Below the pieces are notes generated by a model. It saw nothing but the letters and a program-made list of their open reading frames with translations. It was not told where the DNA came from and made no database searches. From Escherichia phage phiC120, in sequence record KY703222: a DNA stretch of 64,000 nt; one strand, written 5' to 3'. This document shows, piece after piece, positions 29,992 through 43,821 of this stretch. Position 1 is the first letter of the stretch, and every line of letters begins with the position of its first letter. The translations under genes were made by a program, and so were the position numbers.

Positions 29992-30321
29992 TTATACTCT
30001 AGGCTTTTGAGCTTGTTTGGTATTGGATTCCCATGCGGCTTTGGTAATTTTGTTAGCGGCATAACCAAAGGCATTAGATAGAACACCTTTAGAGTTGAAT
30101 ACATCCAATCCAATAAGTACACCAGCTGCGTTAAATTTAGGAGCAAAGTATGCATTAGTTTTAGAAAGAGCTTTTTTCAATTCAGGGTCTTGAACCAAGC
30201 CATCAAAAACGCCTTTACCATTTACTTTATATGTTACTTTGGGATTTTTACCTTCTTCGATAGCAGCTTTCTGTTCCGCAGATAATGTAACTTCAGTGAT
30301 AAATTCTTGATACGTTTTCAT
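29992..30321 (-). CDS. Internal protein with capsid targeting sequence (IP-like)
   Basis: N-terminus MKTYQEFITE equals the T4 internal-protein capsid targeting sequence; Ala/Lys-rich 109 aa. Confidence 0.7.
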   Translation of the reverse strand: MKTYQEFITEVTLSAEQKAAIEEGKNPKVTYKVNGKGVFDGLVQDPELKKALSKTNAYFAPKFNAAGVLIGLDVFNSKGVLSNAFGYAANKITKAAWESNTKQAQKPRV

Positions 30322-30350
30322 ATGTTTCCTTTAAATGTAAATAGGCCTTA

Positions 30351-30929
30351 TTAATTACCACGGGCCGCATTAGCGACGGCGTAAGCGTACTGAACATTAG
30401 CGTCTTTAAACGTACCTTTAGAGGTATCTATTTCTGCCTTAAAGCCACCTTTAGCCATAACATCGGCAAATTCTTTACGGAAAGTCATTGCATCAAGACC
30501 TTTCCATGATGATTTATGCTTGGCAAATTCAAGACCAGCGTAGTTGACAGCTTTAGCCAATTTATTATCAATGACCCATTTACCTGCTTTAGGCACAAAC
30601 TTCGGGCCTTTTTGTTTAGAGAACAGTTTTAAATTCCAGCGACGAAGGTCACTGTCGGCTTTAACAAAAGCTGCGTCTAAGTTACTAGCAACAACATCTT
30701 CAATATGAGCAAATTTAAGTCCGTCAACTTCAATATTTAGATCGTTACGCCAGCGTAGTCCTTCCCAAGCGAAGGCTTTAAAATCAGAAGCTTTTGTGGC
30801 TAGATATCGTTCAAGTGGAGCAGTTTTAGGGTCAAAACCATTTCCGCCACGATAATTCCACTCGTCCTTATTAATGCCTTGAGCTTTTCCTGCAAAGGCC
30901 TCGGCGATAAATTCTTTATATGTTTTCAT
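30351..30929 (-). CDS. Internal protein with capsid targeting sequence (IP-like)
   Basis: N-terminus MKTYKEFIAE; 192 aa. Confidence 0.7.
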   Translation of the reverse strand: MKTYKEFIAEAFAGKAQGINKDEWNYRGGNGFDPKTAPLERYLATKASDFKAFAWEGLRWRNDLNIEVDGLKFAHIEDVVASNLDAAFVKADSDLRRWNLKLFSKQKGPKFVPKAGKWVIDNKLAKAVNYAGLEFAKHKSSWKGLDAMTFRKEFADVMAKGGFKAEIDTSKGTFKDANVQYAYAVANAARGN

Positions 30930-30959
30930 TTTTGTTTCCTTGTTTGTTTTGATAGAGTA

Positions 30960-30989
30960 ATTATACCATATTAATACTTAAGCGTAAAC
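30960..30989 (-). promoter_or_regulatory. Early-type promoter GTTTAC-N18-TATAAT
   Basis: Upstream of the IP-like gene 30351..30929. Confidence 0.5.
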
Positions 30990-30992
30990 AAT

Positions 30993-31253
30993 TTAAGCTT
31001 TACCGCCAGAAATAATTCCGAAGTTGTTAAAATCGTATCCAATATCATCAGCATCTACTTTAGGACTTGCTACAACATAAGCAATTTCACTACGTTTTGC
31101 ATAGGTGTTGATTTCTTTACCATCGCCACCTAAGAAAGAATACCCATTACGTTTTAATGAGCCAAAGTCTTCCGCATCACCAATGAAAGCTTTAACTTTA
31201 AATTTGGGGTCTTTGGCATCCGCTTCAGTGATAAATTCTTGATACATTTTCAT
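30993..31253 (-). CDS. Internal protein with capsid targeting sequence (IP-like)
   Basis: N-terminus MKMYQEFITE; 86 aa. Confidence 0.65.
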   Translation of the reverse strand: MKMYQEFITEADAKDPKFKVKAFIGDAEDFGSLKRNGYSFLGGDGKEINTYAKRSEIAYVVASPKVDADDIGYDFNNFGIISGGKA

Positions 31254-31259
31254 TTTTCC

Positions 31260-31673
31260 TTAGTAAATTGATTTACCATAGTATTTGTACCAAGTGGGAC
31301 GTTGAGCAATTTTTTCATCTAAGCGTGCTTGACTTATCGCAATGGACGCTTCGGACGGGACATAATTATTACGAAATTCTACAGGAATGTCGGAAATATC
31401 CTGGACTGTCGTGTCCTTGATTTTGAAACCACGTTTCAAACATTCAGCTATTAGCTCGATTTGACGTAAACGTAAAAATTCGAGTTTGTCGTAAAAGAAT
31501 GTTACGTGGCCCGTGCCTAAAATAAATGTTGGAGAGATTTTAAAATCTTTTACACGTTTACCATTTTGAACATGTTTACGGACTGCACCGAATACACGAG
31601 GTAATTCACGATACTCAGCCATAAGATGTTGGTCGGTCAGTTCAGAAACAAGTGTTAAATTGATACGAGTCAT
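31260..31673 (-). CDS. denV: Endonuclease V (pyrimidine-dimer DNA glycosylase) DenV
   Basis: [34 protein letters not shown]...[10 protein letters not shown] matches T4 endo V; start at internal Met of ORF 31260..31685. Confidence 0.92.
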
Positions 31674-31700
31674 AATTTCCTCCAAGTAGTTGATAGATGT

Positions 31701-31730
31701 ATAGTATCAAAACCCTTGGAGGAAGTAAAC
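31701..31730 (-). promoter_or_regulatory. Early-type promoter for denV with anti-SD arm in the spacer
   Basis: GTTTAC -35 at 31725..31730; 10-bp perfect inverted repeat 31677..31686 / 31715..31724 pairs the spacer with the denV SD GGAGG. Confidence 0.6.
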
Positions 31731-31731
31731 A

Positions 31732-32013
31732 CTATTTTTCTGAAGCGCCTGAAATATATTTTTCAAGACGTTGTTTCATTAACGAGCCGTTCTTAGCGAT
31801 TTCTTCCGGTTTATCGCACATACGCAGCAGTGCTTCAAGCTTAACGATATCACTGGTGCGCTCAAATTTGCGAGTATCTATCTTACTGGCAAGTTCAGAA
31901 ATACGTGCTAATAGACTTTCAGCTTCAACTAAAGCTGCACCTAGCTTAGTTGCAAATGTGTCAGTAGCTTCGTTAAGAATAGATTCTGATAAAAATTCAC
32001 TATATGTTTTCAT
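31732..32013 (-). CDS. Internal protein with capsid targeting sequence (ipII/ipIII position)
   Basis: Start at internal Met gives [10 protein letters not shown]; sits between denV and e as T4 ipII/ipIII do. Confidence 0.65.
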
Positions 32014-39857: not shown

Positions 39858-39905
39858 AAATCAAAGGATAGGATAATATATTATAAAGGGTATAAACTAA
39901 ATGAT

Positions 39906-39931
39906 GCCTAGAGAGGCCCAGAGAGGCCTAG
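39906..39931. repeat. Tandem direct repeat AGAGAGGCC x2
   Basis: gcctAGAGAGGCCcAGAGAGGCCtag in the 39744..39969 intergenic region. Confidence 0.5.
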
Positions 39932-39935
39932 ATAC

Positions 39936-39966
39936 CAAAAAGCCCTATCATTTAGATAGGGCTTTA
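39936..39966 (-). terminator. Intrinsic terminator after IP-like gene 39970..40533
   Basis: Minus strand AAAGCCCUAUC-UAAAU-GAUAGGGCU followed by UUUUU. Confidence 0.65.
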
Positions 39967-39969
39967 AAA

Positions 39970-40533
39970 TTATTTACCTAGTTTAGTTATTATAGCTTCG
40001 GCAGCAGCTTTTAGCTTAGATGCAGTGTTAATACGATTTTTAATTTCAGTATACGCATCGCCAAGAACATCAAGGCTATCAGAATAAACACTTACACTAT
40101 TGCGTTCGCTATTTGAAATAGAACCTTTAGTTTTACGATCAAAATCAGTGTACACGTCTTGAAGATCACGGGCTGCCTTCTTTGCATCATCCAATGCATC
40201 AAGAGCTTTATTCAAAGCATTGACATATTTTTTAGTGTCAAACATATTCTTAGAAATTTTAACAGGTGCACGTTCAGGAGTAGATAAGGCGGATTTAGGA
40301 ACCTGCGTGCCAGATGCCAGTTTCTTAGAAATTTTGAAAAATGCTTTATTTAAACTATTTTCTTGACTCATCGTAAAAGAACTAGTATCGATGTTATACA
40401 TTTCAATAGCTTTAGCTTTCCACTTAAGAAAATCGCCACGGTCTTTTGGATCCAAGTTGAAGAATACTTTAGTAAGATCTGCTTCAGATGGTAATTTTGC
40501 TGCTTCGGTTAAAAATTCGGCGTAGGTTTTCAT
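39970..40533 (-). CDS. Internal protein with capsid targeting sequence (IP-like)
   Basis: N-terminus MKTYAEFLTE; 187 aa. Confidence 0.65.
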   Translation of the reverse strand: MKTYAEFLTEAAKLPSEADLTKVFFNLDPKDRGDFLKWKAKAIEMYNIDTSSFTMSQENSLNKAFFKISKKLASGTQVPKSALSTPERAPVKISKNMFDTKKYVNALNKALDALDDAKKAARDLQDVYTDFDRKTKGSISNSERNSVSVYSDSLDVLGDAYTEIKNRINTASKLKAAAEAIITKLGK

Positions 40534-40658
40534 TTAAAATCCTTGAAATAATTTATCGGTTGGTTATTAATTATTTATTACTTTGGTATTATCAGTAACA
40601 GCATTCTCTGAGAGATTCAAACTAAAAAGCCCCAACCTTTTGGCTAAGGCTAAGAATG

Positions 40659-41123
40659 TTATTTGATTTGTTTAGCAGACCAAATGCGGTCTTTAATAAG
40701 TTTTTGGATATCTTCAACATACTCAAGGCTATGAGCGTGAGGATTATCTTTGAAGCTATGTGCTCGTGCCAGTTTCTGGCCTTCAGTTTTGATTACCAAA
40801 AGTTCTTTAAGAATTGCTTCATACTTAGAAATAATTCCTTTGGCGATATTTTTTTCTTGAGCTGCTTTAGGGCCCGCTTTTGGTGCTGGTGCTTTACCTG
40901 TAGCTTTCTGGAACAATTCACCTGATGCAGCTAGGCTTTTAAAAACTCGGCTAACAGTATTAGCATTAGTAAAACCTTCGGCTTTAAAATCTCTAATAAA
41001 ACGGAAACGTTCTTCATCAGAGGCGTCTTTGTAAGAATATTTACCTGCTTGAATTGCTGCAATCGCAGCGGCTTTTACATCTGAACTAGATTGTTCAGTC
41101 AAAAATTCTGCATATGATTTCAT
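40659..41123 (-). CDS. Internal protein with capsid targeting sequence (IP-like)
   Basis: N-terminus MKSYAEFLTE; 154 aa. Confidence 0.65.
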   Translation of the reverse strand: MKSYAEFLTEQSSSDVKAAAIAAIQAGKYSYKDASDEERFRFIRDFKAEGFTNANTVSRVFKSLAASGELFQKATGKAPAPKAGPKAAQEKNIAKGIISKYEAILKELLVIKTEGQKLARAHSFKDNPHAHSLEYVEDIQKLIKDRIWSAKQIK

Positions 41124-41167
41124 GTTACTTTTCCTAAGTTAATTAACTTATCTATTTATTATTATGC

Positions 41168-41195
41168 AAAAAAGCCCCAACCTTTCGGAAGGGGC
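41168..41195 (-). terminator. Intrinsic terminator downstream of the tRNA/ncRNA locus
   Basis: Same hairpin sequence as at 24269..24290, followed by a U-tract on the minus strand. Confidence 0.7.
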
Positions 41196-41507
41196 TAAGC
41201 CTTGCGGCAACCTTGTCGGGGTTCCACCTGCTAAGGCAAGTGTTTGTACGAAACGCCGGGATTCGAACCCGGTTATTAAGCAGTTGACGCTACTCAATAT
41301 TTTTAAAAGGCCATATCTCGACCATATCCGAACGTTCCGTCAAAAACGCTACTCGGCTTACGGCAAAGATATTTCCTCGAATCGATAATTCTGTGCGCCG
41401 TTTCTGCTGTGATGTAAGGGGATATTAACGAATCATAAAGATTTATTAAGACCAGTCCTTACTCAGGGAACATCAGTCCGACGACTTGCCGGTAGCGACC
41501 CGGCTTC
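41196..41507 (-). ncRNA. Structured non-coding region with a tRNA-like T-arm/acceptor end; candidate small stable RNA(s) co-transcribed with the tRNAs
   Basis: No ORF; minus strand reads CCGGGTTCGAATCCCGG (T-arm-like, 41255..41271) followed by an acceptor-like strand, but no canonical anticodon arm; several short hairpins; terminator follows at 41168..41195. Confidence 0.3.
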
Positions 41508-41852
41508 TTATTTTGGCATATCATCAATTTGTTCTCGACGCCGACGCCATAGATTAATCGCTTCATAGGCACATTCTGCGTTTGGTATATGACGGCAATA
41601 ATATAATGATTCATGTTTCTGAAACCGATGTTGCAATGGGATTTCGTTTAAAAGGTCTTTGCGATCAAAGTATTCAAAACTAGTTAACCCGGAACGGTTT
41701 TTAATGAACTTCCAATGACCGAATTCATTTTGAACATAGATGTAATCGGCGTGTTGATAAAGTGAATTAATCAATCGGTCTGAAATAACTGTATCATGTT
41801 CGTTAAAATAAAACGTTAAATCATGAACTACTAAATAGACATTACCTTTCAT
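41508..41852 (-). CDS. Hypothetical protein (start at internal Met)
   Basis: ORF 41508..41900 would overlap tRNA-Arg; MKGNVYLVVHD start chosen. Confidence 0.4.
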   Translation of the reverse strand: MKGNVYLVVHDLTFYFNEHDTVISDRLINSLYQHADYIYVQNEFGHWKFIKNRSGLTSFEYFDRKDLLNEIPLQHRFQKHESLYYCRHIPNAECAYEAINLWRRRREQIDDMPK

Positions 41853-41870
41853 ATTTTCCTCACTTATAAT

Positions 41871-41947
<77 letters not shown>

Positions 41948-41953
41948 AATATA

Positions 41954-42027
41954 TGACCCAGACCAGATTCGAACTGGTAACCTTTCCCTTATGAGGGGAC
42001 TGCTGCTAACCGTTGAGCTACAGGGCC
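41954..42027 (-). tRNA. tRNA-like gene with CAU anticodon (Met or Ile2), non-canonical stems
   Basis: Minus strand GGCCCTG...ACCAG-TTCGAAT-CTGGT-CTGGGTC-A; anticodon loop CUCAUAA; one U-U mismatch in the acceptor stem and an irregular D-arm. Confidence 0.6.
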
Positions 42028-43462: not shown

Positions 43463-43500
43463 TTTATTTCTCCATTTACTCGTTTTGTTTTGATAGGACT

Positions 43501-43530
43501 ACTATAACATAGTCCTATCGGCATGTAAAC
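43501..43530 (-). promoter_or_regulatory. Early-type promoter GTTTAC-N18-TATAGT inside palindrome ATAGGACTA / TAGTCCTAT
   Basis: Upstream of gene 43277..43462. Confidence 0.5.
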
Positions 43531-43533
43531 TAC

Positions 43534-43821
43534 TTACAGAAGAGTTTTTGCAATAATTTTAAGCTGAGCTACAGAAATATGCTTAGCTTTAAACAGTGCA
43601 GTCTCTTCAGCCGGAGAGATAACAATAGTAGCGCCATCTTTCTTAGCAGACCATCCGTCCCCTAAGTAAACAGTACCTTTTACTTCTTCACCGTCAACCA
43701 GACTAATCATTGGTTTACCCTCACGTCCTTTATTTGTTTTAATAACTTCAGAAGTAAGGGACGCTTCGGTCAGAGTAGAAACGTTAGCAACAGGTGATAT
43801 AAATTCTTTATAGGTTTTCAT
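43534..43821 (-). CDS. Internal protein I-like (ipI position) with variant capsid targeting sequence
   Basis: 95 aa; N-terminus MKTYKEFISPVANVSTLTE; immediately upstream of 57B as T4 ipI is. Confidence 0.65.
   Translation of the reverse strand: MKTYKEFISPVANVSTLTEASLTSEVIKTNKGREGKPMISLVDGEEVKGTVYLGDGWSAKKDGATIVISPAEETALFKAKHISVAQLKIIAKTLL

Follow-up and report, generated by a model that had tools for sequence, protein, structure and literature searches.

Two leader-bearing genes between rnaC and e.8 of Escherichia phage phiC120: members of an uncharacterised family of probable capsid-targeted internal proteins at a locus empty in T4

The stretch of DNA analysed here, 64,000 nucleotides of Escherichia phage phiC120 (sequence record KY703222; hereafter the window), carries at positions 39970 to 41123 two small genes, g154 and g187, whose products begin with a ten-residue leader like that of the T4 internal proteins (Ips). 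Both genes lie on the minus strand, as seen in the open reading frame (ORF) listing and by direct reading; an earlier note on this DNA, made from its letters, had given coordinates, lengths and N-termini that agree exactly with that listing, and had left the strand unstated. The window is of the Mosigvirus type (RB69/PhAPEC2), and over the 1.3-kb region it shares 99.2% identity with Escherichia phage CCU7 and 97-99% with phiE142 and vB_EcoM_PhAPEC2 (Mosigvirus, RB69-like). In every database record g154 and g187 are entered as "hypothetical protein", and their locus tags could be found in no searchable paper. The PhAPEC2 annotation describes g187 as similar to RB69ORF149c, and the gene is the counterpart of RB69ORF149c/148c and of bas37_0243. 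The features of the locus, from upstream to downstream, are as follows (aa, amino acids; pI, isoelectric point).

41165..41205, minus strand: terminal hairpin with T-run at the 3' end of the rnaC (species 1 RNA) homologue; aligns with T4 rnaC; -21.5 kcal/mol, z -3.4
41153..41160, minus strand: late-promoter-like AATAAATA upstream of g154
41132..41135, minus strand: Shine-Dalgarno sequence AGGA of g154 (direct reading)
40659..41123, minus strand: g154, 154 aa, pI 9.6, all-helical, leader MKSYAEFLTE, PHROG 2280
41094..41123, minus strand: leader of g154, codons 1-10, including the L-T-E motif
40628..40651, minus strand: intrinsic terminator of g154; its hairpin is a diverged copy of that of rnaC; -14.7 kcal/mol, z -2.9
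40572..40579, minus strand: late-promoter-like AATAAATA upstream of g187; invariant in five phages
40540..40544, minus strand: Shine-Dalgarno sequence AAGGA of g187 (direct reading)
39970..40533, minus strand: g187, 187 aa, pI 9.4, all-helical, leader MKTYAEFLTE, PHROG 2280
40504..40533, minus strand: leader of g187, codons 1-10, including the L-T-E motif
39939..39965, no strand assigned: hairpin terminator of g187; -17.7 kcal/mol, z -4.5; T-runs flank it on both strands

The rnaC hairpin, which is conserved in Bas37, G29 and PhAPEC2, forms the upstream boundary of the insertion site. Alignment of T4 with the three intergenic regions of the window shows that the hairpin and T-run at the end of rnaC in T4 (...GGTTGGGGCTTTTT) adjoin GGTATCTAAGCC... 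directly, after which e.8 follows; the 285 bp from e.8 to rnaC in T4 hold no ORF (NC_000866), which bears out the earlier suggestion that T4 has nothing of the kind here. In the window, the T4 continuation after rnaC (GGTATCTAGGCC...) is found only after the T-run of the g187 terminator. Between rnaC and GGTATCTAGGCC lie two units of like build, each comprising (A/T)ATAAATA, a Shine-Dalgarno sequence, a coding sequence and a hairpin ending GGGCTTTTT, and near-identical copies of the hairpin (CTTAGCC..AAAGGTTGGGGCTTTTT) stand on both sides of g154. Each gene is followed by a terminator of its own, as had been claimed, consisting of a hairpin and T-run that reads from 40651 to 40628 for g154 and from 39965 to 39939 for g187. 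This arrangement indicates that g154 and g187 are monocistronic cassettes inserted directly after the rnaC terminator.

The motif AATAAATA matches the T4 late promoter TATAAATA at 7/8 positions and occurs in four copies only on the minus strand of the window, three of which sit 29-38 nt before the ATG of g154, g187 or the late gene e; the distances to the two ATGs of g154 and g187 are 29 and 38 nt. A perfect TATAAATA occupies the g154 promoter position in the allele carried by Bas37, G29 and fD1 (in Bas37 and G29, the Tequatrovirus allele). Furthermore, the region upstream of g187 is invariant across five phages. These motifs fit a late, monocistronic transcription of both genes, which would coincide with prohead assembly.

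A scan of the six-frame translation of the window with the regular expression MK[TSM]Y.EF[IL] returned seven matches, all at the first Met of a minus-strand ORF, while 200 shuffles of the window gave a mean of 0.0. The seven leader-bearing ORFs lie at 43534-43821, 40659-41123, 39970-40533, 31732-32013, 30993-31253, 30351-30929 and 29992-30321, and the total of seven reported earlier is therefore correct, as is the description of the gene at 43534..43821 as ipI-like, since it matches Pfam IPI_T4 with E = 2.6e-49. In both g154 and g187 the leader ends in an [LIV]xE motif (L-T-E) that closes at residue 10, the position it has in T4 IPII and IPIII; the targeting signal that the earlier note had assigned to both genes is indeed present. 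The pI of the two proteins, 9.4-9.6, likewise matches T4 IPII and IPIII. In T4, the ten-residue leader is sufficient to target foreign proteins to the head, and is removed by the prohead protease gp21. Cleavage by gp21 at the equivalent place is predicted to leave Ala11 (AAKLPSEADLTK) as the N-terminus of g187 and Gln11 (QSSSDVK) as that of g154.

The leader codons of g154 and g187 differ by four synonymous changes and one Thr/Ser replacement over 10 codons, and because of these four synonymous differences the leader is conserved as a peptide rather than as DNA. More distant homologues, at 25-45% identity, start with MLKFNEFLAE, MLEYSEFLKE, MLQYNEFLKESLISE, MITFNEFLNESEMINE or MISFNEFVDGNLITE. 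Common to them is the pattern M-x-x-[YF]-x-E-F-[LV]-x-E, frequently with another [LI]xE five residues further on (residue 14-16), so that even diverged members retain the aromatic-x-E-F-(L/V) core together with one (L/I)xE site or two.

Evidence from particles comes from Yersinia phage fD1, in which g140, a 157-aa orthologue of g154 (~75-79% identity), was scored "PPAP" at the strict threshold in liquid chromatography-tandem mass spectrometry of purified virions (PMC8309999, Table S3). The g154 orthologue is therefore made, and co-purifies with fD1 particles. Its leader is MKSYTQFLNE, and its predicted post-cleavage starts are AVLNEASSTEIQAVAK or ASSTEIQAVAK. In the papers on fPS-65/90 and UFV13, proteomics is absent or confined to four gel bands.

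The full length of each protein matches PHROG 2280 ("unknown function"), at 7e-53 for g187 and 3e-53 for g154, and the distant members P0021, P0023, P0027 and P0028 match the same family. An exhaustive profile hidden Markov model search of 1.84 billion representative proteins recovered 15 clusters only, in which every traced member belongs to a T4-like phage or to a phage-like metagenome contig. Pairwise BLASTP of g154 against g187 aligned the 10-residue leader only, and Smith-Waterman and global scores of the leaderless bodies were not above those of shuffles (z ~0.95). Because pairwise similarity is not significant, the case for paralogy rests on profile comparison, PHROG membership, bridging sequences and shared architecture: leaderless subfamily profiles align over 125 columns (P = 2.8e-6), the bridging sequence P0028 has motifs common to both g154 and g187, and AlphaFold2 models of modest confidence (mean predicted local distance difference test scores of 73 and 62) give both proteins the same architecture, namely the leader, then a small N-domain of helices, a linker rich in Pro, Ala and Lys, and a long antiparallel helical hairpin. 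It is thus probable, if not proven, that g154 and g187 are paralogues of one family.

No homology of the mature bodies to IPI, IPII or IPIII was found: Pfam IPI_T4 matches 43534-43821 only, and neither protein matches the Ip PHROGs past the first ~40 residues. The earlier note had also allowed that the bodies might belong to families other than internal proteins; searches of Pfam, NCBIfam and PDB sequences gave no match, and PHROG 2280 was the only family recovered. Cytochrome b562 and globins appeared in these sequence searches as sub-threshold noise.

Two chimeric relatives were observed. In P0020 the last 31 residues of g154 follow an unrelated N-terminal part (Pfam PF26894), and P0025 has the leader and N-domain of g154 followed by an unrelated C-terminus (PHROGs 3720 and 13919); therefore, the N-domain and the C-terminal hairpin behave as separable modules. 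On the metagenome contig that encodes the g187-like P0028, the next gene is a 144-aa ORF (2092-2526) with ART-PolyVal / DUF3990 (ADP-ribosyltransferase-like) Pfam matches, possibly a conflict gene.

Both genes are under purifying selection. Between the window and Bas37, the ratio of non-synonymous to synonymous substitution rates (dN/dS) is 0.14 for g187 (dS 0.17) and 0.08 for g154 (dS 1.8), and for g187 so low a dS points to recent exchange between genera. The g187 matches show 95-99% amino acid identity across Tequatrovirus and Mosigvirus, with four exceptions at 84-95%, and g154 falls into two allele groups, at >=95% and ~73% identity.

All four possible occupancy states of the locus exist. 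Neither gene is present in T4, g154 occurs by itself in Yersinia phage fD1, g187 by itself, directly after the rnaC hairpin, in RB69, and both are found in the window, PhAPEC2, Bas46 and Bas37. By tblastn, g187 was detected in 163 phage records and g154 in 510, with intact copies in ~160 and ~470, respectively. Junction sequences of rnaC and e.8 are present in ~669 records by megablast; as this tool joins pieces up to ~600 bp apart, it does not separate empty from occupied sites and was used for this denominator only. Given g154 in 510 and g187 in 163 of the ~669 junction records, the empty T4 state is therefore the minority. In fHe-Yen9-01 (a Yersinia phage of the Tegunavirus group), g187-like and g154-like genes stand in tandem between tRNA genes and e.6, in reversed order, and the g187-like branch is also present in JS98-type and Enterobacter phages. 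Because of this tandem pair and this branch, the pair is probably ancient, and T4 has probably lost both genes.

Three sequence anomalies were noted among the g187 alleles. Single-base deletions split the gene into two ORFs in RB69 (nt 368) and in G29 (nt 151; both at 1501-2063); they lie outside homopolymer runs in otherwise near-identical copies of intact alleles, and are either recent inactivations or sequencing errors. In vB_Eco_F26, the intact gene is followed downstream by a partial duplicate of the g187 3' end (a 40-aa ORF, 2292-2414), apparently left by recombination at the cassette boundary.

Taken together, these observations make it on balance probable that g154 and g187 represent an uncharacterised Tevenvirinae family of capsid-targeted internal proteins, expressed from late cassettes at a third Ip locus that is absent from T4. 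The capsid-targeted reading of the earlier note is thereby supported; what that note had overlooked is that the two genes are probable paralogues within one widespread family, and that T4 represents the minority state. The packaging, cleavage, injection and function of the two proteins are what we infer from the above. By analogy with T4 IPII and IPIII, the leader MK(T/S)YAEFLTE would dock the newly made protein to the prohead scaffolding core, and gp21 would then cut after Glu10 at L-T-E. The basic mature proteins (~144 and ~177 aa) would stay with the DNA inside the head and pass into the next host along with it, where their most likely role would be to protect the incoming modified DNA during the first minutes of infection, the likeliest mode being stoichiometric inhibition of a host nuclease or defence system. 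In this chain of steps, packaging and processing may be held with good confidence. An anti-defence role is possible, though it falls somewhat short of probable. It is proposed because GmrSD-type type IV restriction enzymes are inhibited by T4 Ip1, Ip2 and Ip3, each acting on a different one (PMC12373910), and because the leader-bearing Bas37_0260 inhibits McrBC (HIDEN-SEQ preprint 10.1101/2025.11.20.689424).

Several observations weigh against this interpretation. With respect to packaging, the virion support comes from fD1 g140, on the g154 side, and for the present phage and for g187 we infer it; moreover, the fD1 particle-associated list is broad, at 113-137 of the 277 gene products, among them DenV, NudE and lysozyme, and the detection of g140 is therefore supportive, not decisive. 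Internal [LI]xE sites, which exposure to gp21 would be expected to deplete, were not demonstrably depleted in a test of low power, with expected counts of only 1-2 per protein. Gene 21 and gene 22, with the other core genes, lie outside the window, the genomes that match it at 97-99% over this locus being complete Mosigvirus genomes. With respect to function, searches of structure and fold libraries returned generic helical hairpins only, and nothing that bears on function. The family is conserved across genera as a pair, as opposed to the hypervariable Ip genes, which fits a specific arms-race inhibitor less well. Finally, the orthologue of g187 was called "Essential" on a K-12 host without type IV restriction, in the reference library of the HIDEN-SEQ study, in which T4 ipI, ipII and ipIII are all Non-essential; no known Ip behaves like bas37_0243.

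These transposon data (HIDEN-SEQ preprint, Extended Data Table 7) concern Bas37 (KarlGJung, a Tequatrovirus), in which bas37_0243 is the orthologue of g187, at 95.7% identity, and bas37_0244 that of g154. The entries for the locus are:

bas37_0242 (e.8): 23/23 TA sites hit, Non-essential
bas37_0243 (g187): 1/48 TA sites hit, Essential
bas37_0244 (g154): 29/34 TA sites hit, Non-essential
bas37_0245 (upstream neighbour): 33/38 TA sites hit, Non-essential

The HIDEN-SEQ authors are silent on bas37_0243. A deletion in the laboratory stock is an unlikely cause of the call, because ~10 reads at one site persist in both conditions. The authors do point out that six dispensable genes of T4 (inh, hoc, segE, uvsW, segC, wac) also score essential, possibly through locus-dependent effects, and we consider it doubtful that bas37_0243 is truly essential. 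Were it so, the g187 type might be the first indispensable, or nearly indispensable, capsid-targeted internal protein, as one half of an ancient pair with a general function in early infection or in the head interior, a proposal to which we attach little weight. Its role could then conceivably be to shield or escort the injected DNA against a ubiquitous host activity, rather than a strain-specific anti-restriction; T4 would, on this improbable account, have lost the pair and compensated otherwise. In the comparison of K-12 with CFT073, bas37_0244 shows no depletion, and neither bas37_0243 nor bas37_0244 is among the genes that the authors highlight for other hosts.

A related alternative is that the proteins are packaged by means of the leader, yet are not defence inhibitors but conserved components that belong to the head interior or are associated with DNA. 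Roles that might tentatively be considered are to neutralise the charge of the packaged DNA or to organise it, to protect a DNA end, or to act as an accessory of the core or scaffold, and g187 would be required for viability in the phages that carry it, which seems unlikely. This alternative would account for the ancient and conserved paralogue pair, found in Tequatrovirus, Mosigvirus, Tegunavirus, Dhakavirus-type and Karamvirus-type phages, for the low dN/dS of both genes, for basic proteins with a Pro/Ala/Lys-rich linker and a long coiled-coil hairpin, and for an "Essential" call on bas37_0243 where its neighbours and the classical ip genes are non-essential and the ~10 reads show that the gene is present in the stock. 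Conversely, T4 and its closest relatives are fully viable without both genes, fD1 carries g154 only, and single-base deletions split g187 in RB69 and G29. Moreover, the g154 orthologue is non-essential, and the six known-dispensable T4 genes that score essential diminish the force of the call itself. As a whole, we regard the head-component explanation as unlikely.

It is less likely still that the shared N-terminus is a recombination or translation-initiation module, and that the proteins stay in the cytoplasm of the producing cell without being encapsidated. Cassettes do move by recombination at conserved flanks, the packaging evidence is indirect and confined to the g154 side, and many cytoplasmic enzymes are in the fD1 particle-associated list. 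However, the leader is conserved as a peptide and not as DNA, and it persists together with the (L/I)xE site in homologues at 25-45% identity; furthermore, the T4 leader suffices to target foreign proteins to the head, and the late-promoter-like motifs fit the timing of head assembly. The last alternative, that one or both ORFs are spurious or decaying, could appeal to the "hypothetical protein" label in all records and to the frameshifted g187 of two records, and is effectively refuted by the intact copies in ~470 (g154) and ~160 (g187) records, by dN/dS of 0.08-0.14 with dS up to 1.8, by the Shine-Dalgarno sequence, promoter-like motif and terminator of each gene, and by the mass-spectrometric peptides of the g154 orthologue.

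Among known systems, the closest to g154 and g187 are T4 IPII and IPIII (leader MKTYQEFIAE, cut by gp21), with which they share a near-identical 10-residue leader, an (L/I)xE motif ending at residue 10, and the character of small basic proteins on accessory cassettes of T-even phages. Yet sequence similarity ends at the leader, the locus is that between rnaC and e.8 rather than that between e and denV, the family is kept across genera as a paralogue pair, and the g187 orthologue scores as essential in one transposon screen. T4 IPI (Pfam PF11634, a GmrSD inhibitor) and the polymorphic ipI locus (Repoila et al. 1994) offer a second parallel, in that leader genes are gained and lost as cassettes between conserved regulatory flanks and that presence or absence differs among close relatives. 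Unlike IPI, however, g154 and g187 have bodies that do not match IPI_T4, and while the ipI locus of the window has flanks of the early-promoter/stem-loop (PeSL) type, g154 and g187 are bounded by rnaC-derived terminators and a late-promoter-like motif. One of the genes ip4-ip13 of Repoila et al. 1994 may conceivably be related to g154 or g187.

Bas37_0260, the McrBC inhibitor, was likewise a formerly "hypothetical" leader-bearing protein of a T4 relative. It differs in lying at the ipI locus and in being conditionally essential, on McrBC hosts only, whereas bas37_0243 is depleted even in the reference library and bas37_0244 is without phenotype. Finally, the mobile PeSL regulatory cassettes of T4-type genomes (PMC2839356, PMC4122927) are similar single-gene modules between repeated promoter/stem-loop motifs that permit recombinational insertion and deletion. 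In the case of g154 and g187, by contrast, the repeat derives from the end of a stable RNA gene and is a rho-independent terminator hairpin, and the promoter motif that comes after it is of the late and not the early type.

The literature speaks of "the two Ip loci", and those treated by Repoila et al. 1994 correspond to the ipI and ipII/III loci (PMC12373910). What the window adds is an unannotated, widespread family of a well-known kind, at a third Ip locus lacking in T4; it would amount to a system of a new type only if the signal of essentiality were real. Injected internal proteins are currently the best route to understanding how T-even phages disarm the nucleases that attack their modified DNA, and all those characterised (Ip1, Ip2, Ip3 and Bas37_0260) are specific inhibitors of type IV restriction. 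With the third locus occupied in most T4 relatives of the phage collection, g154 and g187 offer themselves as two candidates for anti-defence screening. For annotation, PHROG 2280 may serve as the mark of a putative internal protein, and its re-annotation is worthwhile. If true, the essentiality of bas37_0243 would put an end to the view that every internal protein is dispensable.

The two known Ip loci are also present in the window:

43534..43821, minus strand: IPI orthologue, the first known Ip locus; Pfam IPI_T4, E = 2.6e-49
29992..32013, minus strand: second known Ip locus, with four leader genes downstream of lysozyme e

The four genes at 29992-32013 encode proteins of 93 aa, 86 aa (MKMYQEFITE), 192 aa (IPIII-like, 30351-30929) and 109 aa (MKTYQEFITE), where T4 has ipIII and ipII only. 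At the end of gene e the 93-aa gene begins, and among the four proteins two are acidic (pI 5.0-5.5), as opposed to the classical Ips. Downstream of the IPI orthologue, at 43463-43533 on the minus strand, a T4 early-promoter-like GTTTACA...TATAGT overlaps a stem-loop (ATAGGACTA...TAGTCCTAT). This element is a cassette boundary of the PeSL type, and is of another kind than the terminator-based boundaries that flank g154 and g187.

Further observations concern the stable RNAs around the locus. At approximately 41165-41400 on the minus strand lies the homologue of the T4 stable RNA rnaC, the 3' part of which is near-identical to T4, and probably also that of rnaD. Searches of Rfam 15 at relaxed thresholds detected no model for either RNA in this region, and both are therefore RNAs without a family model. 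Directly after the g187 terminator, at 39900-39926, there is a short GC-rich tandem motif (GGCCTCTCTGGGCCTCTCTAGGC, minus strand) that is conserved with T4, where it follows rnaC. An ORF of 114-130 aa (RB69ORF150c-like, 41508-41900) lies between tRNA-Arg and the rnaD/rnaC region. Two tRNA genes only, Arg-tct and one with the anticodon cat, are present at 41871-42027 on the minus strand, compared with eight at this locus in T4; records differ as to whether the cat-anticodon tRNA is Met or Ile, and the Bas46 annotation gives Ile (ATA).

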